From the NCBI GenBank assembly GCA_964386725.1, contig CAYLTX010000024.1, positions 1 to 24,253 of the forward strand: a stretch of DNA of 24,253 nucleotides, in the 5' to 3' direction. The stretch's first letter is position 1. Each line of letters starts with the position of its first letter. This document shows, in pieces, positions 6,141 to 24,078 of the stretch. Position numbers and translations under genes: made by a program. This DNA is from an uncultured Bradymonadales bacterium (GTDB taxonomy: Bacteria > Myxococcota_A > Bradymonadia > Bradymonadales > Bradymonadaceae). The notes under the pieces were generated by a model, which saw only the letters and a list, made by a program, of their open reading frames with translations, was not told the DNA's origin and did not search any database.

Positions 6141-6391
6141 CGGTATTCCGGCCCGTCAAATACCTTTGATAATGAGGTGGATAGTAGTGTTTTTATAAGC
6201 CAATGTCCAAAGCGTGCGGATGCAATGCGAATAGTGTGATTTCGGGGTAATTTGTTGTTGAGGGGGCAAAAGACAGCCCCCCGAAAATCTTTATAAAGGG
6301 CTCGGCGTAGCGAGGCTATCGCGTACTAAGAACGTCTATTCTCTCGACTTGAGCCGGTGTGGGAGTACTTTTGGGGCGCGTCGGTGCCCTT

Positions 6392-6417
6392 ACTCGTCAG
6401 CCCAACTCGTCAGCCCA
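6392..6417 (+). promoter_or_regulatory. Perfect tandem 13-bp direct repeat (ACTCGTCAGCCCA x2), 14 bp upstream of the bphO start. It is a candidate operator or regulator-binding site.
   Basis: This is seen directly in the sequence. It lies in the divergent intergenic region between the kinase gene (minus) and bphO (plus). Confidence 0.25.
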
Positions 6418-6430
6418 GCAACGGTTTGCC

Positions 6431-7027: not shown

Positions 7028-7030
7028 CTC

Positions 7031-9400
7031 ATGAGCACCGAGAGATCCCGAGACGACGAGCTCGACCTGTCGGCCTGCGCCGAAGAGCCGATCCACATCC
7101 CCGGGGCCATCCAGCCCCACGGCCTGCTGCTCGTGCTCACCGAGCCCGAGCTCGAGGCCGTCCAGGTCAGCGAGAATGTCGAGGGGGTGCTCGGACGCGG
7201 CTGCGAAGAGGTGCTCGGCCGACGTGTCGAGCACCTCTTTGCCGAGCCTCGAGCCGAGCAGTTGCGTGCCCAATTGGCGACAGCGGGCGCGAATTATAGC
7301 GCGCCGCTGACGGTCGCCGTCGACGTCGAGCCGGCCGGGCAGTTGTGGTTCGACGCCCTCTGCCACCGCCACCAGGGGCTGCTCATCGTCGAACTCGAAA
7401 ACGCCCGTCCCAGCCGCGAAGACACGCAGTTGGGTCAACAGGGGCTGGGCCACCAAGCCGGCGCGCTGCACGCCCAGCTTCTGGGCGGCGCCTTCGGCAA
7501 GCTGGGCGCCGCGAGCGATCTGGTGCAGATGTGCGAGTTCATCGCCCGGGAGGTGCGCGATATCACCGGCTTCGACCGCGTCATGGTGTACCGTTTTCAC
7601 GAGGACAAACACGGCGAGGTCATCGCCGAGGCGCGCGCCGAGGAGGTGGACTCGTTTTTGGGGCTGCACTACCCCGCCTCGGATATCCCCGCGCAGGCCC
7701 GACGGTTGTATCGGCTCAACTGGCTTCGGCTGATCGCCGACGTCGATTACGAGCCGGCGCGCCTGGTCCCCCGGCAAAATCCGCATACCGGCGCCACCCT
7801 CGACATGAGTCACACCGGGCTTCGAAGCGTCTCGCCGATCCACTTGAAATATCTGCAGAATATGGGCGTGGGCGCCTCGATGTCGATCTCGCTGCTCGAG
7901 GGCGACGAGCTGTGGGGACTGATCGCCTGCCACCATCGAAGCGCGAAATTCGTGCCCCCCGCGGTGCGCTCGGCTTGCGAGCTGCTGGGCACGGTGTTGA
8001 GTCTGCAACTGGCCACGCGCGAGCTCACCGAGAACACGCTGCGTCGTGCCCGGCTCCAAACCCTTCAGGCCGAGCTTCTGCGAAGCGTCGCCGAGCACCG
8101 CACGGTCCTCGGCATGGCCCAGAACCGCCAAAACACGCTGCTCGATTTTGCCGACGCTACCGGCGCGGTCATTCAATTCGACGGACAGTGCCGATCGGTG
8201 GGCTCGACCCCCGACGATGACTTTATCGACGCGCTCATCGAATGGGTTTGCGAGCGTGCCGACGACGCCGTCTGGCACACCGACCATCTGTCGGCGGCGT
8301 ATCCGCCGGCCCGCGAGCATATTGATACTGCCAGCGGTCTTCTGGCCATCATTCTGTCTCGCACTGCCGGGGACGTGGTGCTGTTCTTTCGGCCGGAGGT
8401 CGTGCGCACCGTCGACTGGGCTGGAAACCCCAACAAGCCTGTAGACAAGGAGCCTATAGACAAGGAGCCTATCGACAATAAGCCCGTCGAGGCGGGTGCC
8501 GTCGCAACAGTGGGCGATATGCAGATGCTCACGCCTCGAAAGAGCTTCGAGTCATGGAAGGAGACCGTCTGCGAGCGATCGATCGCGTTCTCGGAGGCCG
8601 AGGTCGACAGCGCCCGCCAGCTCCACAACTCGCTGTTGACCCACATCATCGAGCGCGCCCAGGAGCTCGCCGAGGTCAACAAGGAGCTCGAGCGTAGAAA
8701 CGAGGACCTCGAGTCCTTCGCGTACGTGGCCTCCCACGACCTCAAGGAGCCGCTTCGCAGTCTGCGCGGCTACGCCCAATATCTGGACCGCGAGTGTTGC
8801 GACACCCTCGACGAGCACGCTCAGTCCAAGGTTCAAGGCATGCTGCGGCTGACTCAGCGCATGGACTCGCTGCTCGATTCACTGCTGCACTACTCGCAGG
8901 TGGCGCAGAGCGAGATCCAGCGCGAGCCCATCGATCTGAACCGGCTGCTCGACGAGGCGCTCGAGATCTTGGACCAGCGCTGCGAGGAGAGCGGCGCCGA
9001 CATCCGCGTGCCCCGCCCGCTGCCGCAGGTCGAAGGGGTGCATGTGCGGGTGCGCGAGGTACTGGTCAATCTGATCGGCAACGCGCTCAAGTACACCGAC
9101 GAGACCGACGCCATCGTCGAGGTCGGCTACCAGACGCCCGAAGAGCATGGCGAAGAAGGCCCCCTTCGTATCTACGTGCGCGACAACGGCATCGGAATAA
9201 AGGCGCGCTATCACGAGCGCGTCTTCGAGCTATTTCGCCGTCTGCACGAGCGCGACGCCTATGGTGGAGGCGCCGGCGCCGGGCTGACCATCGTCAAGAA
9301 GATCGTCGAGCAGCACGGCGGGCGCATCTGGGTGGACTCGGAGTTCGGCGAGGGGACGACCTTTTATTTTACGCTCGAGCCGGAACCCAAAGGCGGCTGA
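7031..9400 (+). CDS. bphP: Bacteriophytochrome histidine kinase with PAS-GAF-PHY-HisKA-HATPase_c domains.
   Basis: An N-terminal Cys in the LSACAEEPIHIPGAIQPHG context marks the biliverdin attachment region. The GAF DIP motif is HYPASDIP. The PHY tongue motifs are W(A)G (DWAGNP) and PRxSF (LTPRKSFESW). The H-box is FAYVASHDLKEPLRSL. The N, G1 and G2 boxes are LVNLIGNALKYT, DNGIGI and GGGAGAGLTIVKKIVEQHGGRIW. Confidence 0.92.
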   Translation: MSTERSRDDELDLSACAEEPIHIPGAIQPHGLLLVLTEPELEAVQVSENVEGVLGRGCEEVLGRRVEHLFAEPRAEQLRAQLATAGANYSAPLTVAVDVEPAGQLWFDALCHRHQGLLIVELENARPSREDTQLGQQGLGHQAGALHAQLLGGAFGKLGAASDLVQMCEFIAREVRDITGFDRVMVYRFHEDKHGEVIAEARAEEVDSFLGLHYPASDIPAQARRLYRLNWLRLIADVDYEPARLVPRQNPHTGATLDMSHTGLRSVSPIHLKYLQNMGVGASMSISLLEGDELWGLIACHHRSAKFVPPAVRSACELLGTVLSLQLATRELTENTLRRARLQTLQAELLRSVAEHRTVLGMAQNRQNTLLDFADATGAVIQFDGQCRSVGSTPDDDFIDALIEWVCERADDAVWHTDHLSAAYPPAREHIDTASGLLAIILSRTAGDVVLFFRPEVVRTVDWAGNPNKPVDKEPIDKEPIDNKPVEAGAVATVGDMQMLTPRKSFESWKETVCERSIAFSEAEVDSARQLHNSLLTHIIERAQELAEVNKELERRNEDLESFAYVASHDLKEPLRSLRGYAQYLDRECCDTLDEHAQSKVQGMLRLTQRMDSLLDSLLHYSQVAQSEIQREPIDLNRLLDEALEILDQRCEESGADIRVPRPLPQVEGVHVRVREVLVNLIGNALKYTDETDAIVEVGYQTPEEHGEEGPLRIYVRDNGIGIKARYHERVFELFRRLHERDAYGGGAGAGLTIVKKIVEQHGGRIWVDSEFGEGTTFYFTLEPEPKGG
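8432..8491 (+). repeat. In-frame tandem repeat (~15-bp units) encoding KPVD-KEPID-KEPID-NKPVE, located inside the PHY-domain tongue of bphP.
   Basis: The sequence is AAGCCTGTAGAC AAGGAGCCTATAGAC AAGGAGCCTATCGAC AATAAGCCCGTCGAG. It is locally AT-rich with rare codons (ATA, GTA, AAT) for this genome. Confidence 0.8.
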
Positions 9401-9436
9401 GCCATCTTCGTCGTTGTCTTCTTAGAGGGATTCCCG

Positions 9437-10591
9437 ATGACCTACGAATCGCCCCTTCACATCCTCATCGTCGACGATTGGCCCGAGCATCGGCAGGCGC
9501 TCAAGCGCGAGTTGTTGGTGGGCTTCGAGCGTCGACTCGACTTCACCGAGGCCGCAACGGGCGAAGGGGCGCTGGCGCTGGATTGCCTGCGAGCCGGCCG
9601 CCGGCCTGACGTGATGCTGCTCGACGTCAATCTGCCCGATTTGAGCGCCTTCGAGGTCCTCGAAGAGCTCGCCGAAAGGCACGGCCGGGTCGACCTTCCG
9701 GTGGTGACCTTGACCAGCGCCGCCGACCATCAGAAGGCAACCAGCGCCCTCGAGGCAGGCGCCCAGGACTTCCTCGACAAGTCCCACGTCGACGCCGAGT
9801 TGCTCACGCGGGTGGTGCGCAACTCCATCGATCGCTTTCGCCTGCTCGAGAAGGTCCACGCCAGCGAGGAGCGGTTTCGCCGATTTCTGGCCTATATGAG
9901 CCACGAGATCCGCACACCGATGACCGCGATCCTGAGCTACGCCGAGCTGTTGAACTTCCGGCTCGACGAGCCCGAGGCCCTGCAGTACGTCGGCACCATC
10001 ATGCGCAACGGCGAATATCTCATCGAGATCATCAACGACATCCTCGATCTGTCCAAGATCGAGGCCGGCCACCTCGAGATCGACCCCCAGCAGTTCTCTC
10101 TGCCCGAACTGGTCGAGGACGTCGTCTCCTTGATGCAGGTGCGCGCCGAGGAGAATTCGCTGCCGCTGCATGTCGAGTACGACGGGCTCATCCCCGAGAC
10201 CATCGTGAGCGACCCGGTGCGCCTGCGCCAGGTGCTGGTCAACTTGCTCGGAAACGCCATCAAATTCACCGAGGACGGCGAGGTGCGCCTGCGGGTGGCC
10301 ACGGCCTCTCACCAACTCGACCGGATCGTCTTCGAGGTCACCGATACCGGCATCGGGATGACCCAGGACCAGGTCGATCGCCTCTTCGAGCCCTTCCAGC
10401 AGGGCGACGCCTCGGTCACTCGCCGCTTTGGCGGCACCGGCCTGGGATTGGCCATCAGCAAGCGGCTGGTCGACCGGCTCGGCGGCGACATCGAAGTCGA
10501 AAGCGAATTTGGCCGCGGCAGTTCGTTTCGCTTCTGGATCGACAGCGGCCCGGTGGCCAGGACCTCGCTGGTCGCCCCGCCGGGGCGCTGA
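9437..10591 (+). CDS. Hybrid response-regulator receiver / histidine kinase (REC-HisKA-HATPase_c), the last gene of the phytochrome operon.
   Basis: The REC domain shows ILIVDD, LLDVNLPD (phospho-Asp), VVTLTS and DFLDKS. The H-box is YMSHEIRTPMTAI. HATPase motifs are LLGNAIKFT, DTGIGM and GGTGLGLAISKRLV. The RBS AGAGGGA lies ~7 nt upstream. Confidence 0.88.
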   Translation: MTYESPLHILIVDDWPEHRQALKRELLVGFERRLDFTEAATGEGALALDCLRAGRRPDVMLLDVNLPDLSAFEVLEELAERHGRVDLPVVTLTSAADHQKATSALEAGAQDFLDKSHVDAELLTRVVRNSIDRFRLLEKVHASEERFRRFLAYMSHEIRTPMTAILSYAELLNFRLDEPEALQYVGTIMRNGEYLIEIINDILDLSKIEAGHLEIDPQQFSLPELVEDVVSLMQVRAEENSLPLHVEYDGLIPETIVSDPVRLRQVLVNLLGNAIKFTEDGEVRLRVATASHQLDRIVFEVTDTGIGMTQDQVDRLFEPFQQGDASVTRRFGGTGLGLAISKRLVDRLGGDIEVESEFGRGSSFRFWIDSGPVARTSLVAPPGR

Positions 10592-13365: not shown

Positions 13366-13791
13366 CTACGCCGCCACTGTAAGATCGAGGATGGTACGCG
13401 AATATCGACGCAGATCGTCGAGGTGATTTTCGACGATGTCGCGCACGATCTCATTGTCGAGCGTGCCGTAGGCGTGGACGGCGATATTTCGAAAGCCGAC
13501 CATCGAAATCAACGTGGCCGTGAAGTCCTCGTCCAAGATCTGACGGTCTCTGAGCATCTCGAAGGCCTGCGCAGCGCTCTTCGGTGTGGCCCATGCATTC
13601 TCGGCGATGAGGTGATTGGCGAGGTCGATGCTCGCCTCGACGGCGCGCTGGAGGTAGAGCGCGCAGAGGTCGTCGACGATCCACGGCTCGAGGGCGGCCT
13701 TTGGGCCGGTCACCTGCTCGATGCGCTTGAGGGCCTCGTCGATATTGGCCAGCTTCCCCAATACGATATCTTCGTCGTGGTCGAGGCTCAT
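13366..13791 (-). CDS. hepT: HepT-family HEPN-domain toxin (DUF86) of a HepT/MntA toxin-antitoxin pair.
   Basis: The Rx4HxY motif reads FRNIAVHAY. The start ATG overlaps the MntA stop in an ATGA arrangement (13788-13791). The extended 290-aa ORF in the track is a frame artefact. Confidence 0.85.
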   Translation of the reverse strand: MSLDHDEDIVLGKLANIDEALKRIEQVTGPKAALEPWIVDDLCALYLQRAVEASIDLANHLIAENAWATPKSAAQAFEMLRDRQILDEDFTATLISMVGFRNIAVHAYGTLDNEIVRDIVENHLDDLRRYSRTILDLTVAA

Positions 13792-14207
13792 GAGCGAATC
13801 CTTCGGATGAGCGCCTCGTCGATGGGGCGGCGAAGATGCTTCCAGTCCTCGTAGATGGACGGCGTGTACATCTTGAACTCGGCCAGCGCGCGCTCGTCGC
13901 GGCAGACGATGAGCCGACCGCGCCGCAGGACCTGCATGTTCAGGATGGCGCCGGCGTCGAGCAGGTCGACCAGGTCGACTGTGCGGCCGACGACGGATGC
14001 CAGGCGCCCGGACAGCTCCATGAGCTCGTCGACTTCGAGGCGGCGGCCGGCGTCGACGGCGATGTCGAAGTCGCTGTCCGGCCCCAGACGATCGGCCGCG
14101 GCCGAGCCAAATACGTAAGCAAAGCGCAGCTCGGGGAGGTGCTCGGTGAGTGTTGAGGCGATCTCGTCGGCGCGGTCGATCTTTGGTTGTGGCTGCTCTG
14201 AGGTCAT
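13788..14207 (-). CDS. mntA: MntA-family nucleotidyltransferase antitoxin (minimal NTase).
   Basis: The GSx10DxD motif reads FGSAAADRLGPDSDFDIAV. It lies upstream of and overlaps hepT. Confidence 0.85.
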   Translation of the reverse strand: MTSEQPQPKIDRADEIASTLTEHLPELRFAYVFGSAAADRLGPDSDFDIAVDAGRRLEVDELMELSGRLASVVGRTVDLVDLLDAGAILNMQVLRRGRLIVCRDERALAEFKMYTPSIYEDWKHLRRPIDEALIRRIRS

Positions 14208-14283: not shown

Positions 14284-14545
14284 AGGCGCGGAGGCCGCTG
14301 AAACGCTGAAACGCCGAGGTCGCTGAAGGCCGGAAGCGCTGACCGCGGAGTAGCTGAAGACACCGCGAAGGCACGCGAAAAGAGCTGAAGACGGCCGTAC
14401 ATTGCAGCTATGTGGTCGGGTCGGGAGGTCTTCAGTGCCTTTCGCGGGATTCAGCGGGGTCTTCAGCCTTTCGCGATTAGCGTTCAGCCACTCTGCGAGA
14501 TCTGAGTCTCCGAGTCTCTGAGTCTCCGAGTCTCCGAGCCTCCGC
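14284..14545. repeat. Copy 2 of the ~270-bp dispersed palindromic repeat. It ends in 5 tandem 8-mers (GAGTCTCC-like) abutting the stop codon of the 1789-aa gene.
   Basis: It is homologous to 11596-11885 in the same orientation. The microsatellite CTGAGTCTCCGAGTCTCTGAGTCTCCGAGTCTCCGAGCCTCCG lies at 14500-14543. Confidence 0.8.
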
Positions 14546-17500
14546 TACTCCCCCTCCGGCACCGCCGCCCCACGCAGCGCGTCGAGCTTTTTCATCACCT
14601 CGTCGAGCTGCGCATCGCGCTTCTGATCGTCGTCAGCTTCCCGATAGACGAATTTCGCCAACGGCAAAATCGCGCTCTCGATGAGCCCGAGCTGCGACTC
14701 GAGGACCTCGCCGAGCTTGGTGGGCATATCGCCGACGACTTGGACTTCGAGCTTGGCCTTTTGCAGGGATTGGAGCGCTTGGGCCAGCGCCTGAGCGGCG
14801 GCTGGTTCGGTTTGTTGGTTAGTCGGTTCTTGGGGTCCCCTCCGCCTCGCTTCGCTCCGCACCTCCCCCGCTCGGGGAGGGGATATCTGCCTCTCTGCGG
14901 CCTTCTCTGCTGAGTCGGCGGCGCGCTCCAGCGCACCGCGGATGTGGGTGAGCTCGCCGCTGAGGCTGTCGGTGGAGAGCGCCGTGTGGACGTCTTCGAG
15001 GCGTTGGACGAGTGTGGAAAGGGGGCCGGCGACGCGGCTGACGGGGTCGTCCTCGCCGCCGCCCATCATCTTGCGGCGCTTGAACTCGCGGCGGATTTCT
15101 TCCCAGCGGGCTTCTTTTTCGGGCGTCATCTTGCCGCGCAGCTCGGCCAGTTTGAGCAGGTTTTGCTCGCTGCCGGTGGTCAGCGTCTGGGCTTCCTGGT
15201 TGTAGTGGTTGTCGATGAGCTGCTCGACCTCGTCGTCGTTCATAGCCGAGGCGAGCTTCTCGGTCATCTTATTCATGTTGCGGTAGCTGCCCTGCAGCTG
15301 GAAGGGCGGTTCGGTGCGGTACTCGTCCTTCTTGCCCGCCGAGATGATGTACTGCTGGTTGACCTTCAGCACCACGTCGCGGATCTGCATGAGCTTTTCG
15401 AGCACGTTGACGATCTCGCCGGCCTCGACCGAGGAGTAGGCGTGGTCGAAGTCGCTCAGGGGGACTTGCTTGCCCTGGGCCATCTTCAAAAACCGGCCGA
15501 TATCGGCGCGCTCGCGGGTGACCAGCGGGGCGGTGACCTTGTTGGAGGTCAGCGCGTTCTCGATATAGCTGAGCTCGAAGACTTCGCGTTTGCCGTCGAG
15601 GATATCGCCCAAATTGTAAGTGTCGGCGCGGTTGGCGAGCATGTCCGGGATGGTGAAGCGCTCGCCGCTTTCGGTATACGGGTTGCCGGCCATGACCACC
15701 GCGAAGCGCTTGCCGCGCAGGTCGAAGGTCTTGGTCTCTCCGTTCCAGACGCCCTCGATGCGACGCGTGGAGTCGCATAGCGAGATGAATTTTTGCAAAA
15801 ACTCGGGGTGGGTGTGCTGGATATCGTCCAGATATAGCATCACGTTATTGCCCATCTCGAGGGCCTGGTTGATCTTTTCGACCTCCTGGCGGGCGGTGGC
15901 GTTGGGGGCCTCGGTGGCGTCGAGCGAGGTGACGTCGTGGCCCAAGGACGGCGCGTTGATCTTCATAAACATCAGGCCGAGCCGGTCGGCGACGTACTCC
16001 ATCAGGGTCGTCTTGCCGTAGCCGGGCGGCGAAATCAGCAGCAAAAGGCCGCTGCGATCCGAGCGGCTGTCCTCGCCGACGGTGCCCATCTGCTTGGCGA
16101 GGTTGTCGCCGATCAGCGGCAGGTAGGCCTCGTCGATGAGCCGGTTTCGCACAAAGCCGCTGAAGACCTGCGGCTCCATATCGTCGACGCGCAGCCGGCG
16201 GCGCTCGCGCTCGAGCAGCGCGCGGCTCAGCCGCTTATACTCTTTATAGGCGGGCACGTGCTCGTCGACGTAGCGGCGAAGCCGGGTCAAAAACTCGTCG
16301 AGGCGAAGCTCCATCGTGCCGTTGTCGATGCGCGGATGCTGGCCGAGCAGCTCTTTGACCTGGGTCGCGGTCTGCGCCGAGGTGGTCTGGCGGTCGATGT
16401 CCCCGTCGGTCAGGATCAGCGCGGCGACCTCGGGCACCAGGTGCGCGAGGTCGTCGTCGAGCTGGCTTTGCTCGAAGCCGGAGACCCAATCGACCATCAG
16501 ATCCCAGCTCGCGCTGAGGTCGCCCTCGAGCTTCTCGAGATCTTCGTCGAAGTCGAGGTGGGAGTGGTGGCGGTCGAGGTAGTCGTAGAAGGCTTTGCGC
16601 AGATCGGTGGCTTCGCCGCTGGCGATAAACCGGGGGTCCTGGTCGACGAGCTCTTCGGCGAGGTAGCGGCCGGCTTCGCGGGCGAGGCCCGTAAGCTGAT
16701 GCGCTGATGCGCTGAAGCGGGCAAGCTGCCCGCGCTCCATGAACTCTTCTATCTCCGTCGCTAATTCTTGGCCCAGCCGCTCGAGCGGCTCACCGTGGGC
16801 GAAGACCTCGCGCAGCCGGCCGAGGCTGACGCCGCGGCGCGCCCACCTCCGGCGCTGCTCGGGCTGGTCGGCGTAGGCCCAGAAGACCGTGGCCAGCGCG
16901 CGCGCCTCGGGGGTGTAGCGCAGCAGGCCGGCGGTGGCGTACATGCCCATGAGCTTCTTGAGGATCTTGATCGTATCGTCGTCGTGCACGCCGCGCTCAT
17001 AGCCCTCGTCGTAGCGCTCGTTCATGCGCTCGCGGATGAGCTTTCTGAGCGTGTCGGTGTCGCTGAGCAGGGCGTGCAGCTCGTCGACTGTAAGCTCGCT
17101 ATCGTTCTTCTCGGCCTCGAAGAGGATCGTCGCCGCCAGGTATTCGGCGCGGTAGACCTCGTCGGTCTCCGAGATGAGGTGCTGGTCCCAAAAGGGCCGC
17201 GTCTTGGCGAAGTCCTCGTCGTCGATCGGCTCGAGAAAGTCGGTGCCGGTGATATGCAGCGCCATACGTCTTTGGCCACCGTCTGGGCCGCCATCATCGT
17301 GGGGCACCATGGTCATCTCGGCCGGCTGCGTGTTCACGCTGAACCGGTGGCCGCCGAATTTGATGACGTTGTCGCCGCCCTCGAAGAGGTCGAGCTTGTC
17401 GCGCAGTTGGCGGACGGCCTTGTCCTTGGCGGCCTTGAGCTGGGTGTCGATGTCGTCGGCTTTGACGTCTTCTTCGAGCTCGCGCAGCCGCTCGACCAGG

Positions 17501-19914
17501 TCGCGCACCTTCATGACCATCGCGTCGGAGGCGAAGTAGCCGTTCAGATCCTCGACCGACTCCATATTGGAGGCGCGTCGGACCACGCCCTCGAGGATGC
17601 GCTCGGCGCTGCGGGCGATATTATTGGCCTGGCGCTGGCGCTCCTCGAGGAGCTGCTGCTTCCTGGTCTCGAAGACCTCGTAGACCTCGTCGCGCTTCTC
17701 GGCGAGCTTGCCCAAGAAGCCGTCGAAGTCGCTGAAGCGACTCTCGAGCTCCTCGAGCTGGACGGTCAGCCGGGTGAGCTGCTCGTCGCAGGCGTCCGGG
17801 GTGTTGGCCATGCCCAGGGCGCTGGTCACGCTCTGGCTAAAGAGCTGGAATTGGACGGCAAATTCGGCTTTGCCCTCTTTTTCCTGCAGCTCTTTTTTAT
17901 TGCGATCGAGCTTCGCCCGGGCGCGGTTTTGGCGGCTGAGCGCCTCCCCGATATTCTCCAGGATCCGGGTGCGCTTATTGGGGTCGTCGACCTTCAGGCC
18001 GCTGACGACTTCGGTGAGCAGGTTCAGCCCGAGGTTGATCTCGTCGAGCTTCTCCAACATCTCGTCGGCCTGGCGGGTGTCCTCGAGCTGGTCGACGGTC
18101 CCTTCGATCTCGGCGAGGCCGTCCTGGTAGGTCGACAGGGCGTCTTCGCGCAGCAAAAAATCGACGGTCGCCCGGCTGAGCTCGTCGTAGCGATCGCTGA
18201 CCTCTTCTTCGAGCTCTTCGAGGCGCGCGAGGTCGATATAGCGCATCTCCTCGAGGGTGATCAGCGCGCCGCGGTGCTTGCGCAGCTTGTCGAGGCCCTC
18301 GACGAAGCGGTCGATGCGCTTCCAATCGTGGTAGCGCACGTCAGTCATCAGGCCGCGCTGCTTTTGCACGGCCTCGGCGAGTGCGTCGCGGGCCTGCTCC
18401 TTGCGGGCGGTGACCTTCTGGAACTCGTCGATGACCAGCTCGGCGGTCTCGATGATCTCGGAGGTGACGCTGGCCAGGTTCTCGGCCTCGTCTTTGTCGA
18501 GCCAGAAATACGCGTCGAGCAGCCTTTGGGCGTTGGTGATCAGCGCCTCGTAGACCGGCAAAGACGGCTCGAGATCGCCGATCATCGAGCAGAGGCTATA
18601 GGCGTCGGAGACCCCGCGGACCAGCTCTTTATTGCCGATGCTCGACAGCAGCGAGTCGTCGGTGGGCTGGTTGGCGGCATGCTCGTCGCTGATAAACGGC
18701 GTCTGCCAGATCTGCATCGGGTGGATGCGGGTGGGCTCGTCGCCCATGAACCGAAATACGATCATCGTGCCGTCGTCGAAGAGGCTGTAGCCGTGGCAGT
18801 TGATCGGGTTCTGGACGCCCTTTTGGATGACGTTATAGGCGAGCAGCAGGTAGCTGCCGTCTTGCGGGTGGTAAAAGACGTATAAAACGTCCTCGCCGTT
18901 GGCCGATTTGATGACGCTGTGGGTGCGCAGGCCCTCGACGGCGCCGTCGAATTTGCGAAATTGGCCGTTCGACAGCGCAATGCCGCCCGGGAAGATCACG
19001 CCCTGGTCCTCGGGCAGCCGGATGCAGGATTGGCCGATGGCGTCGATGCGCTCGATCTGCTGGGTGAGCTTATTATAGATGAAGTAGCGCCAGCGCTCCT
19101 CGCGGTACGGCAGGATCTTGAGGAGGATCAGATTGCCGATCTCGGCGTAGCCGAATTCCCCGTCGCCCAGCGACTGGTGTTTGTCCTCGACCGGCTCGTT
19201 GTAGATGCCTTTGCCGTCGTCGGTATTGTCCTCGATCTTGATGGTCAGATCGCCGCCGACGGTCTCGACGAAGACCTCGTCGAGGATGCTGATATGCGGG
19301 TGGTGGCCGGTGACGTGGTCCTCACGGGTGACCGTGCGCCACTCGAAGTCGTGAGCCTCGGGCGGCTTGAGATCGCGGTCGCCAGCGTTGTCCAGATATT
19401 CGATATTCTCGGCCGCATCGAGCCCCCAGCGCAAAACGCGGGCATCGTCGAGGGTCGAGCCGACCTGGAAGAGTGCGAGCAGCCGGCCCTCCGGCTTGAG
19501 CAATTGCCGCAGCCGCGCGTCCTTATAGTAGGTATAGAGCTCGTCGAAATCCTCGAGGAAATCCTTGTCGGCCAGGAAGTTCTCGCCGCCGTCGAGCGGC
19601 ACCGTCTCGAGCTTGAAGCCGTCGTCGGAGGTCTCGAAGGCGTGCAAGCTGAAGACGTCGTCGACCTCGGTCTTGGTCTTCAGGCCGATCTTGACGTTAT
19701 AGCCAAAGAGCAGCCTGCCGCCGATGGTGACGATGTCCTGCGGGATGCAGTTATTCTCGGTGCGGATGCGCTCCTGGCCGACCACCGTCATCTCGACGCC
19801 GCCGAACATCGCCTCGCGCTTCTCATTGAGGCGATCGGTCTTGTCGGCGAGCCGCTGCGCCTGATCCTCCAGGCGCTTGCGGATGATGTCGTAATTGCTG
19901 GACTCGATGGACAT
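14545..19914 (-). CDS. Very large (1789 aa) protein. It has an N-terminal ~450-aa globular region, a long central coiled-coil/helical region and a C-terminal AAA+ ATPase (AAA_5 / MoxR / dynein-like P-loop). Function is unknown.
   Basis: Walker A is LLLISPPGYGKTTL, Walker B is NVMLYLDDIQH and sensor-1-like is AVVMAGNP, at about aa 1280-1400. The coiled-coil region has extensive E/K/R/L-rich heptad-like segments. The start ATG overlaps the flotillin stop (TAATG), indicating translational coupling. Confidence 0.85.
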   Translation of the reverse strand: MSIESSNYDIIRKRLEDQAQRLADKTDRLNEKREAMFGGVEMTVVGQERIRTENNCIPQDIVTIGGRLLFGYNVKIGLKTKTEVDDVFSLHAFETSDDGFKLETVPLDGGENFLADKDFLEDFDELYTYYKDARLRQLLKPEGRLLALFQVGSTLDDARVLRWGLDAAENIEYLDNAGDRDLKPPEAHDFEWRTVTREDHVTGHHPHISILDEVFVETVGGDLTIKIEDNTDDGKGIYNEPVEDKHQSLGDGEFGYAEIGNLILLKILPYREERWRYFIYNKLTQQIERIDAIGQSCIRLPEDQGVIFPGGIALSNGQFRKFDGAVEGLRTHSVIKSANGEDVLYVFYHPQDGSYLLLAYNVIQKGVQNPINCHGYSLFDDGTMIVFRFMGDEPTRIHPMQIWQTPFISDEHAANQPTDDSLLSSIGNKELVRGVSDAYSLCSMIGDLEPSLPVYEALITNAQRLLDAYFWLDKDEAENLASVTSEIIETAELVIDEFQKVTARKEQARDALAEAVQKQRGLMTDVRYHDWKRIDRFVEGLDKLRKHRGALITLEEMRYIDLARLEELEEEVSDRYDELSRATVDFLLREDALSTYQDGLAEIEGTVDQLEDTRQADEMLEKLDEINLGLNLLTEVVSGLKVDDPNKRTRILENIGEALSRQNRARAKLDRNKKELQEKEGKAEFAVQFQLFSQSVTSALGMANTPDACDEQLTRLTVQLEELESRFSDFDGFLGKLAEKRDEVYEVFETRKQQLLEERQRQANNIARSAERILEGVVRRASNMESVEDLNGYFASDAMVMKVRDLVERLRELEEDVKADDIDTQLKAAKDKAVRQLRDKLDLFEGGDNVIKFGGHRFSVNTQPAEMTMVPHDDGGPDGGQRRMALHITGTDFLEPIDDEDFAKTRPFWDQHLISETDEVYRAEYLAATILFEAEKNDSELTVDELHALLSDTDTLRKLIRERMNERYDEGYERGVHDDDTIKILKKLMGMYATAGLLRYTPEARALATVFWAYADQPEQRRRWARRGVSLGRLREVFAHGEPLERLGQELATEIEEFMERGQLARFSASAHQLTGLAREAGRYLAEELVDQDPRFIASGEATDLRKAFYDYLDRHHSHLDFDEDLEKLEGDLSASWDLMVDWVSGFEQSQLDDDLAHLVPEVAALILTDGDIDRQTTSAQTATQVKELLGQHPRIDNGTMELRLDEFLTRLRRYVDEHVPAYKEYKRLSRALLERERRRLRVDDMEPQVFSGFVRNRLIDEAYLPLIGDNLAKQMGTVGEDSRSDRSGLLLLISPPGYGKTTLMEYVADRLGLMFMKINAPSLGHDVTSLDATEAPNATARQEVEKINQALEMGNNVMLYLDDIQHTHPEFLQKFISLCDSTRRIEGVWNGETKTFDLRGKRFAVVMAGNPYTESGERFTIPDMLANRADTYNLGDILDGKREVFELSYIENALTSNKVTAPLVTRERADIGRFLKMAQGKQVPLSDFDHAYSSVEAGEIVNVLEKLMQIRDVVLKVNQQYIISAGKKDEYRTEPPFQLQGSYRNMNKMTEKLASAMNDDEVEQLIDNHYNQEAQTLTTGSEQNLLKLAELRGKMTPEKEARWEEIRREFKRRKMMGGGEDDPVSRVAGPLSTLVQRLEDVHTALSTDSLSGELTHIRGALERAADSAEKAAERQISPPRAGEVRSEARRRGPQEPTNQQTEPAAAQALAQALQSLQKAKLEVQVVGDMPTKLGEVLESQLGLIESAILPLAKFVYREADDDQKRDAQLDEVMKKLDALRGAAVPEGE

Positions 19915-22136
19915 TATTCACCGGGGGTCAGGTCGGGCGTGGACTCCTCGTCGGATTGGGCGTCGGACTTGTTGCCGGATTGGGCGTCCGCTCTGGCGAG
20001 TTGGCCGAGCCTGTCGGAGACCTCTTCGACGTCGATGTCCTCGGCGTCCTTATCGGAGTGCTTGTCCGAGCCGGGGAAATTGCCCATGCCGTCCATGACC
20101 TTGCCCAGCATCTTCTGGGCGGTGGGGCTGTGGTCCATGAAGCCCTCGACCATTTTGCCGACGGTGACCGACTTGGTGAAGTTCTCGAAGAACGAGTCCT
20201 GGCCGCCGACGATATTGATATTGGATGCCTTGAACGCGTCGCCGAGCACGTCGGCTTGGGCGCGGGCGATCTCGATGGACTTGGCGAGCTTCTCCATGCC
20301 CAGCTCTCGGTAAAGGTCGAGCTGCATCTGGAATTGCTCGAATTCGTAGCCTTCGGCGTCGAAGTTTTTCATCGCTTCGGCCTTCTCGGTCAGACCCTCG
20401 GCCTCGGCGGCGAGCTTGTCGCGGATGGCCTTGGCGTCGGCCTCGCCCATGTCGGCGCGGACCTTGGCGCGGGCCATGCCTTCCTCGCGGATGGCGTTGG
20501 CCTCGGCCTCTTTGATGCGCACGCTCACCATGCCCTGCTCTTCTTCGCCGGCGGCCTGCGCGGTCATCTTCTCGCGGGTGACCTTGGCTTCTGCCAGGCC
20601 CTCCTTCTCGATGGCCTCGGCCCGCTTTTCGGTCAGTCGGATGTCGACCATACCGGTCTCTTCGTTGCCGGCGGCTTCGGCGAGCATCTTCTCCTTGCGG
20701 ACCCTGGCGTCGACCATGCCCTGCTTTTCGTTGGCCTGCGCGTCGGCTTCTTTGACGCGGACCTTGGCCAGGCCGGGTGCGGCCTCTTCGGCCTCGATAC
20801 CCTCGGCCATGCGTTGCTTGGCCTTGGCGATGCGGTCGGCGGCGTCGAGCTCGGCGTCGGCTTCGACGACGCGCTGCTTGGCGCGGTGCTGGGCGGCTTG
20901 CTCTTCGGCCTCGGCGGCCTTGATATCCTTGACCAGTGCCTCTTCGGCCTCGCCCTCGGCGGCGATGACCGCGGCCTTCTTCTTACGCTCGGCGTCGGCG
21001 ATGACGCGCAGATCTTGGATGCGCTCTTCTTCCTCGGCCACCGTCTTGTCGACCGAGACGCGGTCGCGCACGATCTCGGCGATATTCTTCTTTTCGACCT
21101 CGACTTCTTTGTCTTTCTCGATGCGCTGCAGCTCGGTCTCGCGCTCTCGGCTGATGACCTGGAGCTGGCGCTCTTTTTCGACGTTTTCGGTCTCCACGGC
21201 GATGACGCGCTCGCGGTTTTTCTCGGCGACCTGTTCTTCGCGGGTCTTGTTGACCTTCTCGACCTCGATCTCCTGCTGAGCCTTGAGCTTGGCGCGCTCG
21301 GCTCGGGAGTACTCCTTGGCGGAGAGCTCGTCGGCCTCGGCCTGCTCGCGGGCCTGGACGACGTCGATCTCGCGCTTTTGCTTGGCCTCGGCTTCGGCCT
21401 GCTGGCGCTCGTATTCGAGCAGCGCCATCTTGGTCTCGAGGTCATCTTTGCCGATGTCCTTCTTGGCCTTGTTGGCAAATTCGTTGGTGCGGAAGCGCTG
21501 ATCACTGGTCAGGTCAGTGATCTTGCGGATGCCCTGCGAGTCCAGAATATTCTGCGGATCGAGGTCCTCGACCGGGGTCTGCTCGAGGAAGTCAATGGCG
21601 GCGTCCTCGAGGACGTAGCCGTTGAGGTCTTCGCCGATGATCTCGATGATATCGTCGCGGAAGCGCACGCGCTCGTTGTACAGCGACTCGAATTCGAGGC
21701 TCTTACCGACGGTCTTGAGCGCCTCGGAGAATTTGGCGGCGAAGAGCTCCTCGATCTTGTCGTGGTCCGAGGCGCGCTTGCAGCCGACCGATTGGGCGAC
21801 CTTGAGCACGTCCTTGGCAGTCTGGTTGACCCGTACGAAGAAGGTGACCTTGATGTCGGCGCGGATATTGTCCGCGCAGATCAGCCCCTCTTTGCCGCGC
21901 CGGTCGATCTCGATGGTCTTCAGCGAGACGTCCATGAACTCGGCGCGGTGGATCACCGGCAGGACCAGCCCACCTTTGAAGGTCACCTCCGGATCGGTGT
22001 TGCCGGTCTTGTTGATGATCAGCGCCTGGCCCTGATCGACCTTGATGTAGCGGTTGATGAAAAAGGCGACCACGCCGAAGAGGATGACTCCGCCTCCGAT
22101 GATTCCGAATAATAAAGCAGCGCTGATTCCTGACAT
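19914..22136 (-). CDS. Flotillin-family SPFH/band-7 protein (YqiK/FloT-like) with an extended EA-rich coiled-coil and three ~40-aa tandem repeats.
   Basis: It has an N-terminal TM helix (ISAALLFGIIGGGVILFGVVAFFI). The SPFH core reads KVDQGQALIINKTG...VSLKTIEID. Long EAEAKQKRE / AEAEEQAA coiled-coil flotillin-type repeats follow. The repeated unit is AAGxEExGMVxxRxxExxAxAIxxEGxAxAKV (about nt 20440-20760). The RBS AGGAGA lies 7 nt upstream. Confidence 0.9.
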   Translation of the reverse strand: MSGISAALLFGIIGGGVILFGVVAFFINRYIKVDQGQALIINKTGNTDPEVTFKGGLVLPVIHRAEFMDVSLKTIEIDRRGKEGLICADNIRADIKVTFFVRVNQTAKDVLKVAQSVGCKRASDHDKIEELFAAKFSEALKTVGKSLEFESLYNERVRFRDDIIEIIGEDLNGYVLEDAAIDFLEQTPVEDLDPQNILDSQGIRKITDLTSDQRFRTNEFANKAKKDIGKDDLETKMALLEYERQQAEAEAKQKREIDVVQAREQAEADELSAKEYSRAERAKLKAQQEIEVEKVNKTREEQVAEKNRERVIAVETENVEKERQLQVISRERETELQRIEKDKEVEVEKKNIAEIVRDRVSVDKTVAEEEERIQDLRVIADAERKKKAAVIAAEGEAEEALVKDIKAAEAEEQAAQHRAKQRVVEADAELDAADRIAKAKQRMAEGIEAEEAAPGLAKVRVKEADAQANEKQGMVDARVRKEKMLAEAAGNEETGMVDIRLTEKRAEAIEKEGLAEAKVTREKMTAQAAGEEEQGMVSVRIKEAEANAIREEGMARAKVRADMGEADAKAIRDKLAAEAEGLTEKAEAMKNFDAEGYEFEQFQMQLDLYRELGMEKLAKSIEIARAQADVLGDAFKASNINIVGGQDSFFENFTKSVTVGKMVEGFMDHSPTAQKMLGKVMDGMGNFPGSDKHSDKDAEDIDVEEVSDRLGQLARADAQSGNKSDAQSDEESTPDLTPGE

Positions 22137-22172
22137 CAGCTTTCTCCTGTCTGGTGGTGATATTGCGCGTAA

Positions 22173-22955
22173 TTATGCAGTGGGTTCTTCAGCTTTTTCT
22201 TGGATCTCGGAGGCGGCCGGCTGGTCTTCGAAGGCCACCTCGTCGGCATAGTCGTCATCATCGTCGGCCAATAGATCGTCGTAGGGCTCGACGAAGAAGA
22301 CTTCATCCTCGGCGTCGTATTCGATGAGCAGCGCGCGTGAGCCGCGCGTCAGCGCGCCTTCAGTCTCACAGCGGATCGACACCAGCAGTCCGGCGCCGCC
22401 GTCGTCGACCTCGCCGCGGCCGAAGCTCTCGGTGACCCGCCCGGAGGTGACTTTGCACAGCTTGCCGACCAGCGAATGCCCGCCCGTTTTGGTGTGAATT
22501 TCGAAGAGGCCCTTGAGCGGATGGGTGAAGATCGAGGTGATCGGAAGCCCCACGATGACGCTTCCGACGACCACGCCCAGCCCCACGAAGACACCGGTGC
22601 CGAAGATCGGCCCCAGGTAATAGACCGCGGCAAAACACAAAAACCAGGAGACCAGCGTCAGAATGCTGGCGATGATGGTCACCGGCACCCGGCCCAGGCC
22701 GATGGCGGCCATCATCGCGTGCAAAAAGCCGCCATGGGAGCCCGCGTCGACATCGGCATCGGCGTCGATATCAGCGTCCACATCGGCGTCGAAGTCGATG
22801 TCGACATCCACCTCGTCGAACTCGAAGTCGAAGTCGAATAGCTCGATGTCGACCGCGCCGACGATGGCCATCAGCCAATACATCACGACTAAGATCAACA
22901 TCCCCGAGAAGATGACGGTCGGGAAGGAGAGGGCGATGTCGAGAAATTCAGTCAT
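22173..22955 (-). CDS. NfeD/YqiJ-like membrane protein. It has N-terminal TM helices and a C-terminal OB-fold, and is the typical partner of SPFH proteins. Here it carries an unusual acidic D/F/V repeat loop.
   Basis: TM segments are present (FPTVIFSGMLILVVMYWLMAIVGAV; IIASILTLVSWFLCFAAVYYLGPIFG; VFVGLGVVVGSVIVGLPI). The C-terminal beta-rich segment GKLCKVTSGRVTESFGRGEVDDGGAGLLVSIRCETEGALTRGSRALLIEY resembles an NfeD OB-fold. It lies immediately upstream of the flotillin gene in the same orientation. The acidic loop is DIELFDFDFEFDEVDVDIDFDADVDADIDADADVDA. Confidence 0.7.
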   Translation of the reverse strand: MTEFLDIALSFPTVIFSGMLILVVMYWLMAIVGAVDIELFDFDFEFDEVDVDIDFDADVDADIDADADVDAGSHGGFLHAMMAAIGLGRVPVTIIASILTLVSWFLCFAAVYYLGPIFGTGVFVGLGVVVGSVIVGLPITSIFTHPLKGLFEIHTKTGGHSLVGKLCKVTSGRVTESFGRGEVDDGGAGLLVSIRCETEGALTRGSRALLIEYDAEDEVFFVEPYDDLLADDDDDYADEVAFEDQPAASEIQEKAEEPTA

Positions 22956-23058: not shown

Positions 23059-23319
23059 TTATTGCAGTGCGGCGCTCTTTGCGCTCTCTTGGATCTTGAA
23101 CTCGAATCCCTTCTTGAGCCTGTTGAGCGGCTTGAATTCGGCCTGATCCTTGTGCTTCTCCCAGAAGACGTCGCCGCCCTTGCGTTTTCCCTCGATATCC
23201 ATCTTATCGAAGTCGATGAATTGCGAGTCCGGCTCGTCAGCACTTTGGGACTGAGCGGCCACCGGCGCGGCCACGGCCATGAACGATAGGGCGACCAACA
23301 TAGCGATGAGCTTCTTCAT
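23059..23319 (-). CDS. Small (86 aa) secreted protein of unknown function with a signal peptide.
   Basis: The RBS AGGAGA lies 5 nt upstream of the ATG. The signal peptide reads MKKLIAMLVALSFMAVAAPVAAQ|SQ. The mature part is charged and lysine-rich (FIDFDKMDIEGKRKGGDVFWEKHK...). Confidence 0.6.
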   Translation of the reverse strand: MKKLIAMLVALSFMAVAAPVAAQSQSADEPDSQFIDFDKMDIEGKRKGGDVFWEKHKDQAEFKPLNRLKKGFEFKIQESAKSAALQ

Positions 23320-23445: not shown

Positions 23446-24078
23446 TCACCAGCTCAGCGAAAAGCTCGCGCCGAGCCCGTCGTCGGTGGCAGTGGGGCTG
23501 AGCGCGAAGGCGGTGTCGTCGTCGCGCGGGGCGCCGGCGACCTCGGGGCGCGTCCAGAGGTCGTAGATCTCGCTGACACGCAACACGCCATAGGCGACGG
23601 CGCCGCTGATCATCATCGCCTCATTCATGCGTTGGTCGGCCTCAGACGAGCGGCTGGTGCGATCATCATCGGCGCTGTGCGGCAGATTATCGAGGCTGCG
23701 GACCAGGCCGATGAACATCACAGTGGCGCTCATCGCCTCGCCGACCGTATAGAACCAGCCGGTGGTGCCCCATTCGCCGACGATGGCGTGGCCGATGCCG
23801 AGTCCGTAGTACGAGCCGACCAGGCCACCCAACACGTAGCGAGTCTTGGAGATTGGCTGCTTTTTGTCCCGGACGACCGGCGATGTCGAGGCGCGCCAGC
23901 GCGAGTCTTGTCGGGGCTGGTCGTCTTGTCGGGGCTGGTCGTCTTCGCCAGCTTGCTGCTCGACCGGTGGTGGCGGAGCCGGCGGCTCGGCGCCGGCCGC
24001 CGGCGCCCACGCCATCGCCGCCAGGGCCACCACGACCGCCCACACACCAGTCGCTTTTTGAAAATAGTTTGCTATCAC
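23446..24078 (-). CDS. Secreted or membrane glycine-zipper protein with a Pro-rich linker and a duplicated DDQPRQ motif. It uses a GTG start.
   Basis: The RBS AGGAGA lies 7 nt upstream of the GTG. The N-terminus is hydrophobic (GVWAVVVALAAMAWAPAAGA) and is followed by PPAPPPPVEQQ. The Gly-zipper segment is YVLGGLVGSYYGLGIGHAIVGEWGTTGWFYTVGEAMSATVMFIGLV. An 18-bp tandem duplication lies at 23906-23941. Confidence 0.5.
   Translation of the reverse strand: MIANYFQKATGVWAVVVALAAMAWAPAAGAEPPAPPPPVEQQAGEDDQPRQDDQPRQDSRWRASTSPVVRDKKQPISKTRYVLGGLVGSYYGLGIGHAIVGEWGTTGWFYTVGEAMSATVMFIGLVRSLDNLPHSADDDRTSRSSEADQRMNEAMMISGAVAYGVLRVSEIYDLWTRPEVAGAPRDDDTAFALSPTATDDGLGASFSLSW

Follow-up and report, generated by a model that had tools for sequence, protein, structure and literature searches.

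The locus studied here raises the question of whether a very large ATPase belongs to a flotillin module and, if so, how it might act on that module. SPFH proteins and their NfeD partners build closed cages or domes on membranes. In a 24,253-nucleotide stretch of DNA from an uncultured Bradymonadales bacterium (contig CAYLTX010000024.1; hereafter, the window), the genes for such a pair are followed by a third gene encoding a soluble ATPase of 1789 residues. A preliminary description regarded this arrangement as a candidate for an undescribed system. The present study shows that these three genes make up the PspA-free, "abbreviated" version of an operon that is already known and is conserved. 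Both the operon and its abbreviated version were already described by Ravi et al. in 2024 (preprint 2020), who found the abbreviated version to be more widespread (PMC11237479). A six-gene version in Pseudomonas aeruginosa, bacABCDEF (PA3732-PA3727), is co-transcribed and co-regulated (PMC10948618). Thus, the operon is already known in the literature.

Organization of the locus

Three co-directional open reading frames were read on the minus strand of the window, in the order NfeD-like protein, flotillin, and ATPase (Table 1). They are genuine genes rather than chance reading frames, since the ATPase has more than 5500 homologues at E ≤ 1e-10 and a Pfam match at E = 1e-198. A gap of 36 bp containing an AGGAGA Shine-Dalgarno site leads from the NfeD-like gene to the flotillin gene. 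The previously noted overlap between the flotillin stop and the ATPase start was seen directly in the sequence: the TAA (19916-19914) and the ATG (19914-19912) share one base, reading ggtgaaTAATGtcc. Among 78 related loci, the two genes overlap in just 3 and are separated by a median of ~120 bp; therefore, by this comparison, the overlap is lineage-specific. Scans around the operon for sigma-54 promoters, sigma-70 promoters, and terminators gave nothing above chance. Downstream of the ATPase gene, after 337 bp, comes a MntA/HepT toxin-antitoxin pair, and the window also contains an IS66 transposase. Exact-sequence look-ups of the window ATPase and of the Persicimonas homologue matched no record by which the contig might be prolonged.

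Two small ORFs upstream of the NfeD-like gene do have the export signals attributed to them earlier, i.e., signal-peptide-like N-termini, but their suggested membership in the locus was not supported. Homologues of both were absent from all 80 related loci, including the closest one (76% ATPase identity). We therefore rejected them as system members and place them outside the conserved unit.

Table 1. Features of the flotillin-ATPase locus in the window (aa, residues of the ATPase unless a protein length is given)
Feature	Position	Strand	Basis
Two small ORFs upstream of the NfeD-like gene	23059-23319, 23446-24078		signal-peptide-like N-termini
YqiJ/YuaF-type short NfeD-like inner-membrane protein, 260 aa	22173..22955	-	orthologue-profile hhalign
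YqiK-type flotillin (SPFH/band-7), 740 aa	19914..22136	-	orthologue-profile hhalign, BLASTP
TAATG junction, flotillin stop/ATPase start, 1-base overlap	19912..19916	-	direct sequence reading
Soluble ATPase, 1789 aa ("DNA repair ATPase"/DUF3686 family)	14545..19914	-	Pfam
Beta-propeller-like domain (DUF3686 core), aa ~41-410	18685..19794	-	AlphaFold2 and Foldseek
Helical/coiled-coil stalk, aa ~420-845	17380..18657	-	AlphaFold model, DUF7902, composition
DUF7902 within stalk, aa 591-675	17890-18144	-	Pfam
Conserved middle domain, aa ~850-1250	16165..17367	-	model 2, alignment
AAA+ module, MoxR/dynein/midasin/McrB type, aa ~1258-1600	15115..16143	-	
Walker A, SPPGYGKTT	16006-16032	-	invariant in homologues
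Walker B, LYLDDIQH, invariant DD	15814-15837	-	invariant in homologues
C-terminal helical tail, aa ~1601-1789	14548..15114	-	model 2 to aa 1660, alignment

Conservation of the flotillin-ATPase linkage

The flotillin gene lies directly upstream of the ATPase gene and in the same direction in 79 of 80 homologous loci, the contig being cut at the 80th, and an NfeD-like gene is present in 74. The inference of linkage therefore holds. This bears out the earlier proposal that an NfeD/YqiJ-flotillin pair is extended here by a large ATPase and that the co-occurrence is conserved; the reverse situation, with homologues routinely lacking a flotillin, was not observed. Judging by record titles, the 80 loci belong to Myxococcota, Gamma-, Beta-, and Zetaproteobacteria, Actinomycetota, and Acidobacteriota. 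The linkage likewise exists in Bacteroidota, Deinococcota, and Streptomyces replicons.

The closest genome is syntenic with the window over the triad only. Accessory genes that recur around it encode PspA, DUF2170, a PLD-like protein, and a rhomboid, all membrane-stress or lipid related. DUF2170 and PspA genes stand directly upstream in 19 of the 80 loci, and a PLD-like gene occurs in 10; the window has MntA/HepT downstream of the ATPase instead. The PspA-free form is the commonest (61 of the 80 sampled loci, no PspA within 10 kb), and the window contains no PspA gene, nor a DUF2170 gene upstream of the operon; the link to PspA is therefore optional. Around non-proteobacterial triads, divergent PspA, DUF2170, PLD, and rhomboid genes were also sought with HMMs, which added none to the BLAST clusters. 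The Hymenobacter locus has the order Tir chaperone, PspA, DUF1449, flotillin, and ATPase, and plasmid pQBR103 carries a yjf-type operon followed by the triad.

The Pseudomonas loci retrieved in this study correspond to bacA-F, with genes for DUF2170, PspA, NfeD, flotillin, ATPase, and PLD in that order. Furthermore, the published bac RT-PCR primers map to the 3′ end of the flotillin gene and to the RTENNCIA codons at the ATPase N-terminus. On this gene order and these primer positions, the ATPase is the orthologue of P. aeruginosa PA3728 (PA14_16190, BacE). The window shares with the operon of Ravi et al. and with bac the genes for a YqiJ/YuaF-type protein with three transmembrane segments and a YqiK-type flotillin. 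In contrast to the full-length bac type, it lacks the genes for the CesT/Tir-like DUF2170, PspA, and PLD (HKD) proteins. A sigma-54 site has been proposed in the literature for bacABCDEF; no sigma-54-like promoter was seen upstream of the window operon, and the TAATG coupling is particular to its lineage.

The NfeD-like protein and the flotillin

Pfam matches of the window flotillin and NfeD-like protein are sub-threshold, and homology to YqiK and YqiJ was therefore established through orthologue profiles. E. coli YqiK aligned with the flotillin orthologue profile at an hhalign probability of 99.9% (E = 1e-32, 410 columns), and YqiJ with the NfeD orthologue profile at 94.6% (E = 7e-8). Thus, both membrane proteins of this E. 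coli module, against which the comparison was made, are homologous to the window pair. Single-sequence matches were weaker: NCBIfam FloT at 2e-4 and Pfam Flot at 0.0096 for the window flotillin, and YqiJ_N at E = 0.022 for the window NfeD-like protein. Band_7 was matched by 6 of 21 flotillin orthologues (best E = 5e-11), and YqiJ_N by 3 of 21 NfeD-like orthologues. A PDB profile search with the flotillin gave no match, and one with the NfeD-like profile gave chance matches only.

The NfeD-like protein has at least three transmembrane (hydrophobic) segments. It also carries a loop rich in Asp (aa ~41-72), and its C-terminal domain is of the beta (OB-like) type. In the flotillin, a single hydrophobic segment at the N-terminus (aa ~5-27) forms the membrane anchor; an SPFH domain, a coiled coil rich in Ala and Glu, and a C-terminal region typical of flotillins follow. 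With R/K residues following the anchor, its bulk is predicted to be cytoplasmic by the positive-inside rule. BLASTP gave 26% identity to YqiK over 446 aa; the window protein has 740 residues against 553, its C-terminal ~250 remaining unaligned. The gene order, NfeD-like then flotillin, is that of E. coli YqiJ-YqiK and Bacillus subtilis YuaF-FloT. The E. coli yqiJ-yqiK module has no third gene, and a DNA-level search with a Xenorhabdus gene, insensitive below ~65% identity, detected no ATPase relative in 5,426 E. coli genomes.

Domain architecture of the ATPase

Pfam assigned residues 22-470 of the ATPase to PF12458 (DUF3686, E = 1e-198), residues 591-675 to PF25472 (DUF7902, E = 1.9e-23), and a C-terminal part to AAA_5. 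The N-terminus, which had been called unannotatable, therefore belongs to a defined family, and it was modelled as a beta-propeller of ~28 strands preceded by a helix (aa 7-37). The AlphaFold2 model of this domain had a pLDDT of 87.5 and a pTM of 0.82. Its top Foldseek matches in the PDB were all beta-propellers (E of 3e-7 to 1e-4, with low TM-scores), among them Elp1, the DCAF1 WD40 domain, Sec12, Ski8, and the clathrin terminal domain. When clustered at 50% identity, proteins with this domain form 716 clusters; they are nearly always 1600-1900 aa long, with the domain at their N-terminus.

The coiled coil, earlier put at about 800 residues, was found to be a stalk of ~420 residues. Model 1 places long helices at aa 422-579, and residues 500-800 are 40-45% charged with 10-14% Leu; the stalk models cover residues up to 580 and from 840 onward. 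Residues 850-1250 are globular and mostly helical in the AlphaFold models. This middle domain, for which Pfam gave no match, comprises a small beta unit and then a helical bundle, with pLDDT above 90 over most of model 2 and many invariant alignment columns.

The C-terminal AAA_5/MoxR/dynein-like ATPase of the preliminary description was confirmed, both Walker motifs being present and invariant in homologues, and its fold is that of the AAA_5/helix-2-insert clade. Among solved structures, the MoxR ATPases CbbQ and NorQ have the nearest folds; sequence and profile searches of the PDB reached only ~35 residues around the Walker A of p97, NVL, and RuvB. N1411 is a putative sensor-1 residue and R1429 a putative Arg finger. 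The Walker B motif reads LDD(I/V)QH, with D1363 and D1364 invariant across 52 sequences, and is not the canonical hhhhDE. This invariant DD, where DE is usual, suggests that hydrolysis is slow and switch-like. The C-terminal tail is variable except for one conserved helix near its end. No transmembrane segment was found in the ATPase by hydrophobicity and no peptidase domain by Pfam.

A candidate remodeller of the flotillin scaffold

Most likely, in our moderately confident estimate, the ATPase is an ATP-driven remodeller of the cytoplasmic flotillin (and PspA) scaffold under envelope stress. A membrane-remodelling or envelope-stress role, as envisaged earlier, is the best reading. In its favour are the PspA and DUF2170 genes found upstream in some loci, the gene arrangements in Hymenobacter and on pQBR103, and, in P. 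aeruginosa, the increase in the PspA-like protein PA3731 upon osmotic shock (PMC2587700) and the up-regulation of PA3728-PA3732 in phage-infected cells (PMC12041424). A cage made of the flotillin and the NfeD-like protein would sit on the inner membrane, on its cytoplasmic side. The ATPase would oligomerise through its MoxR/dynein-like AAA+ ring and bind the scaffold with the beta-propeller carried on the ~400-residue helical stalk. Candidate targets of the propeller are the crown of the flotillin, the OB domain of the NfeD-like protein, or polymers of a PspA whose gene lies elsewhere. When the envelope is under stress or the membrane is being repaired, ATP turnover may then open, disassemble, or reload the scaffold, and in the window lineage the TAATG overlap could couple translation of scaffold and motor. 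The literature that we found reports no contact of the ATPase with flotillin, NfeD, or PspA. In P. aeruginosa PA14, deletion of the flotillin orthologue PaFlo3 lowered biofilm by ~20% and gave no stress or virulence phenotype under laboratory conditions (PMC13086221). This weak phenotype, the absence of a VWA partner, and the absence of PspA at most loci count against scaffold remodelling.

In HflK/C-FtsH, an AAA+ machine is housed inside an SPFH cage. Together with prohibitin-m-AAA, in which an SPFH cage is likewise functionally coupled to a membrane AAA+ machine, this is a precedent for an SPFH-AAA+ partnership (cited in PMC13086221). However, FtsH is a membrane-anchored AAA+ protein of the classical clade with an M41 protease domain, located within a periplasm-facing cage, whereas the window ATPase is soluble, is a member of the MoxR/dynein clade with no protease domain, and is encoded in the flotillin operon itself. 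Dynein and midasin (Rea1) carry six AAA+ modules per chain. In contrast, the window ATPase has one, so any ring would need oligomerisation. A more specific version of scaffold remodelling, which we offer only tentatively, is a ring-forming dynein/midasin-like mechanoenzyme whose propeller-tipped stalks would grip the cytoplasmic crown of the flotillin/NfeD cage, and PspA polymers where present, with ATP opening or recycling the cage. If true, this would be the first dedicated SPFH-scaffold motor, and for membrane-repair assemblies it would be the bacterial equivalent, in function, of Vps4. PspA/Vipp1 is the bacterial ESCRT-III, and the likeness to Vps4-ESCRT-III lies in the idea of an AAA+ ATPase recycling a membrane-remodelling polymer, PspA being encoded in the operon at 19 of the 80 loci. 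The N-terminal MIT domain and classical-clade AAA module of Vps4 are absent from the window ATPase.

Alternative functions

The ATPase could instead be a MoxR-like maturation chaperone (cf. CbbQ, NorQ, RavA), maturing or repairing one specific membrane-protein client with the flotillin cage as an assembly platform only. It would then be neither a remodeller of scaffolds in general nor a stress device, a reading that we consider rather unlikely. CbbQ serves in Rubisco activation and NorQ in metal insertion into NorBC; MoxR-type ATPases are about 270-500 aa long and normally act with a VWA partner (CbbO, NorD, ViaA). The fold similarity to CbbQ and NorQ suits such a role, and the propeller on its stalk could be a client adaptor replacing the usual VWA protein. 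Ravi et al. also propose chaperone-like assembly of membrane complexes (PMC11237479), and a weak flotillin-knockout phenotype under general conditions would fit a niche client (PMC13086221). However, no conserved client-gene candidate stands beside the triad in the 80 loci, whose flanks are heterogeneous, and the recurrent accessory genes point to membrane stress or lipids. No VWA/MIDAS domain was found in the products of the operon or of the adjoining genes, nor does such a gene recur beside the triad in the 80 loci. Furthermore, CbbQ, NorQ, and RavA differ from the window ATPase, which has 1789 residues, carries propeller, stalk, and helical domain in cis, and has DD, not DE, in Walker B.

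Anti-phage defence by abortive infection, with the membrane scaffold sensing infection and the ATPase executing the response, was another suggestion of the preliminary description. The nearby MntA/HepT pair and IS66 transposase, a weak PADLOC match to LmuB, and the up-regulation of PA3728-PA3732 in phage-infected P. aeruginosa (PMC12041424) are in its favour. Nevertheless, phage induction would be expected anyway of a Psp-type envelope-stress operon, and the LmuB match is confined to the coiled-coil stalk (aa 485-875). Neither the flotillin nor the NfeD-like protein matched any model of PADLOC-DB v2, and no defined system was matched. The phage and viral collections (50,697 phage records, and IMG/VR) contained no copy; among 72,556 plasmid records there were just 13, most of them on megaplasmids or chromids. 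Between phyla, the proteins share 45-55% identity and keep one architecture, unlike fast-evolving defence genes, and the flanks, which differ even in the closest genome, show neither recurrent defence genes nor defence-island synteny. Having weighed it, we give defence low weight as very improbable.

The same low weight, at the level of the barely credible, went to a DNA repair ATPase of the SMC/Rad50/SbcC kind: the Pfam/NCBI names ("ATPase involved in DNA repair," "DNA repair ATPase"), the long coiled coil, the weak RuvB and LmuB matches, and a LexA-family regulator adjoining the Hymenobacter operon speak for it, but an ABC-type split head is lacking, the N-terminus being a beta-propeller and the sole P-loop lying in the C-terminal MoxR/dynein-type AAA+ module, the RuvB matches, at E~3e-3 and far under curated cut-offs, are confined to the ~40 residues that surround Walker A, the obligatory partners are membrane proteins, and no link of the family to DNA repair was found in the literature. 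The name "DNA repair ATPase" is thus probably a misannotation that is being propagated.

Relevance to flotillin biology

A flotillin hard-wired to a large motor-like ATPase in many phyla, P. aeruginosa included, offers a natural experimental entry point, and the P. aeruginosa operon affects biofilm formation and virulence. The linkage bears on two questions, namely how bacteria assemble, open, and turn over their flotillin cages and whether PspA-type membrane repair has an ATP-driven partner. To the known operons, the window locus adds a Bradymonadales example with predicted translational coupling.

Results

The preliminary description had read the window locus as a candidate for an undescribed system, in which an NfeD/YqiJ-like membrane protein and an SPFH/flotillin protein are joined by a 1789-aa AAA+ ATPase (together, the triad). 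That observation was essentially right and the linkage of the genes is strongly supported, but the system is not new. The locus is a Bradymonadales, PspA-free, translationally coupled example of a conserved operon, known from earlier comparative genomics and from partial study in Pseudomonas aeruginosa. We identify the operon class with high confidence. The three co-directional minus-strand ORFs were recovered where they had first been placed (Table). More than 5500 homologues of the ATPase at E ≤ 1e-10, the nearest from Persicimonas caeni (Bradymonadales, 78% identity), indicate that the genes of the triad are real.

Table. Features of the window
Feature	Positions	Strand	Remarks
NfeD/YqiJ-like protein, 260 aa	22955..22173	-	ORF
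Flotillin, 740 aa	22136..19914	-	ORF
ATPase, 1789 aa	19914..14545	-	ORF
Walker B of the ATPase, aa 1360-1367	15814-15837	-	L-D-D-(I/V)-Q-H, invariant across the DUF3686 family
Asp-rich alternating loop DFDFEFDEVDVDIDFDADVDADIDADADVD	22742-22835	-	NfeD/YqiJ-like protein aa ~41-72, between membrane segments 1 and 2
MntA-type nucleotidyltransferase (Polbeta/NTP_transf_2) and HepT-like HEPN RNase	13366-14207	-	Overlapping toxin-antitoxin pair
IS66-family transposase ORF	70-1110	+	DDE_Tnp_IS66 and IS66 C-terminal element; near the window start
1241-aa protein	2415-6140	-	Ser/Thr protein kinase domain, AAA_16 STAND NTPase, MalT-like TPR repeats
Light-sensing cluster	6359-10591	+	Heme oxygenase, bacteriophytochrome histidine kinase (PAS_2-GAF-PHY-HisKA-HATPase), response-regulator/histidine-kinase hybrid

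A scan with one genome per species found a relative in at least 590 species, and the best 80 loci were fetched with 10-kb flanks. Searches by tblastn with the window proteins placed a co-directional flotillin gene upstream of the ATPase in 79 of these 80 loci; in the remaining one, the contig begins 77 bp ahead of the ATPase. Thus, the homologues do not routinely occur without flotillin. The NfeD-like gene was found by tblastn in 74 loci, and contig ends cut four of the other six. Clustering of all flank ORFs agrees with tblastn on the presence of both genes. By record titles, the 80 loci belong to Myxococcota, Gamma-, Beta- and Zetaproteobacteria (including Pseudomonas, Xenorhabdus, Lysobacter, Pseudoalteromonas and Lampropedia), Actinomycetota (including Nonomuraea, Actinoplanes and Nocardiopsis) and Acidobacteriota. 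Remoter relatives (42-43% identity) on Hymenobacter (Bacteroidota), Deinococcus and Streptomyces replicons show the same arrangement. Compared with the closest genome (76% identity), synteny of the window is limited to the triad. Two exported proteins encoded upstream had been suggested as part of the locus; none of the 80 loci holds a homologue of either.

The 36 bp between the NfeD-like and flotillin genes include an AGGAGA Shine-Dalgarno site. At the following TAATG junction, the last base of the flotillin TAA (19916-19914) is the first base of the ATPase ATG (19914-19912). This overlap is present in the window as described, but it is not a family feature, being seen in only 3 of 78 loci (median gap about 120 bp). 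In three loci (L041, L067 and L079), 2-6.4 kb of other DNA separates the two genes.

The window's own flotillin and NfeD-like sequences gave weak Pfam/NCBIfam matches (FloT 2e-4, Flot 0.0096, YqiJ_N 0.022). Profiles built from 21 orthologues aligned flotillin with E. coli YqiK (99.9% probability, E=1e-32, 410 columns) and the NfeD-like protein with E. coli YqiJ (94.6% probability, E=7e-8), and Band_7 was directly detected in 6 of the 21 flotillin orthologues. The NfeD/YqiJ-plus-flotillin assignment is therefore correct. Flotillin has one N-terminal membrane anchor and, since basic residues follow it, most of the protein is predicted to lie in the cytoplasm. In the NfeD/YqiJ-like protein there are three or more membrane segments. 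Its Asp-rich loop could be a cation-binding or a disordered acidic loop; (D-x)n loops of very variable length occupy the same site in orthologues (e.g., at locus L002).

The N-terminal domain of the ATPase, taken at first as unannotatable, is covered at aa 22-470 by Pfam PF12458 (DUF3686, 'ATPase involved in DNA repair'; E=1e-198). PF25472 (DUF7902) follows at aa 591-675, and AAA, AAA_5 and AAA_22 at aa 1287-1415. Among 1.84 billion representatives, DUF3686 occurs in 716 clusters (50% identity) and nearly always opens a protein of 1600-1900 aa, which points to a fixed architecture. For aa 1-580, AlphaFold2 (pLDDT 87.5, pTM 0.82) predicts a helix at the N-terminus, next a domain with ~28 strands (aa 43-404) and, starting at aa 422, long helices. 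In a second model (aa 840-1660, pLDDT 85), the AAA+ module comes after a middle domain (aa ~850-1250) that is mostly helical and well folded. Consequently, the coiled-coil/helical stalk measures ~420 residues (aa ~420-845) in the models and not about 800, as had been estimated. The ATPase has no hydrophobic segments.

Both Walker motifs, A (SPPGYGKTT) and B (LYLDDIQH), are present and invariant among homologues, and the AAA_5/MoxR/dynein-type assignment of the C-terminal module holds. In contrast to MoxR proteins, which have DE in Walker B, the DUF3686 family invariantly has DD. Asp thus stands where the catalytic Glu usually does, and this may make ATP hydrolysis slow or switch-like.

Among the 80 loci, DUF2170 and PspA/IM30 genes precede the triad in 19, all from Proteobacteria, and HMM searches found no further cases. 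A PLD-like (PLDc_2) gene lies about 0.2-1 kb 3′ of the ATPase in 10 (L014, L015, L019, L022, L027, L029, L035, L047, L055 and L078), and a rhomboid protease gene downstream of it in 8 (L015, L018, L019, L022, L029, L035, L040 and L046). As PLD-like and rhomboid proteins act on membranes or lipids, their presence fits a membrane-related role. The order on a Hymenobacter plasmid (L083, 1571-10884) is Tir chaperone, PspA, DUF1449, flotillin and ATPase; a divergent LexA-family regulator adjoins this operon. On plasmid pQBR103 (L081, 56-11190), a yjf-type operon (DUF2491, DUF350, DUF1190, glutathionylspermidine synthase) directly precedes the triad.

Discussion

Our literature search found no paper naming DUF3686. 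The window locus matches exactly the abbreviated (PspA-free) operon of Ravi et al. 2024, who suggested that such operons may work with PspA encoded elsewhere and reported an additional PLD hydrolase in the operon of some Proteobacteria (PMC11237479). The six-gene form in P. aeruginosa is the bac operon (bacABCDEF, PA3732-PA3727/PA14_16140-16200), whose co-transcription extends by RT-PCR through PA14_16190 (bacE) and PA14_16200 (bacF); a sigma-54 site has been proposed for it, and all bac products are raised in a bacA mutant (PMC10948618). The published bacD-bacE forward primer matches the flotillin 3′ end of an Aquipseudomonas locus exactly, and the reverse primer falls on the N-terminal RTENNCIA codons of the ATPase in Pseudomonas loci (20/21 nt, one single-base indel). 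By these primer positions, BacE (PA3728) is the orthologue of the window ATPase.

Osmotic shock induces the PspA-like PA3731, and cells lacking it are impaired in biofilm formation, swarming, rhamnolipid production and virulence (PMC2587700). Phage infection induces PA3728-PA3732 (PMC12041424), and PA3728 is listed, as an ATPase, among genes mutated in CF isolates in three longitudinal studies (PMC8190622). Deletion of the flotillin orthologue PaFlo3 alone reduces biofilm by only about 20% (PMC13086221).

The effect of the giant ATPase on the flotillin scaffold merits experimental study. On membranes, SPFH/NfeD proteins assemble into closed cages, one of which, the HflK/C cage, houses the AAA+ protease FtsH. 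The mechanism that we tentatively favour, and consider possible as a whole, is an ATP-driven remodelling of the scaffold. It draws on the arrangement of the ATPase domains, on the solubility of the ATPase, on a flotillin predicted to lie mostly in the cytoplasm and on the conservation of the operon. In this model, a cage made of flotillin and the NfeD-like protein would stand on the cytoplasmic face. The ATPase would oligomerise via its MoxR/dynein-like module, and its N-terminal propeller, borne on the long stalk, would bind the scaffold (or PspA polymers). Under envelope stress, ATP turnover, which the DD of Walker B suggests to be slow and switch-like, would open, disassemble or reload the scaffold.

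The MoxR-like module could instead belong to a maturation chaperone serving one specific membrane client. However, the flanks of the loci hold no conserved client gene and, unlike for MoxR proteins, no VWA partner gene was found in the operon, among the window neighbours or in the 80 loci, and we consider this role unlikely. An anti-phage defence function appears considerably less probable. The PADLOC match to LmuB is limited to the coiled-coil stalk, and PADLOC recognised no system; phage and IMG/VR collections contained no copy, and synteny gave no sign of a defence island. Plasmid copies are few, and conservation across phyla is high. In the window, 337 bp separate the ATPase from the downstream MntA/HepT pair; neither this pair nor the IS66 element is shared with related loci. 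A role in DNA repair is highly improbable, as the protein is not built like an SMC/Rad50-type enzyme (no split ABC head) and the RuvB matches, which span ~40 residues surrounding the P-loop, score far under curated cut-offs. Therefore, neither 'ATPase involved in DNA repair' (PF12458) nor 'DNA repair ATPase' (NCBI product name) seems supported; both names probably arose from coiled-coil similarity to SMC/SbcC-type proteins and have been carried across thousands of records.
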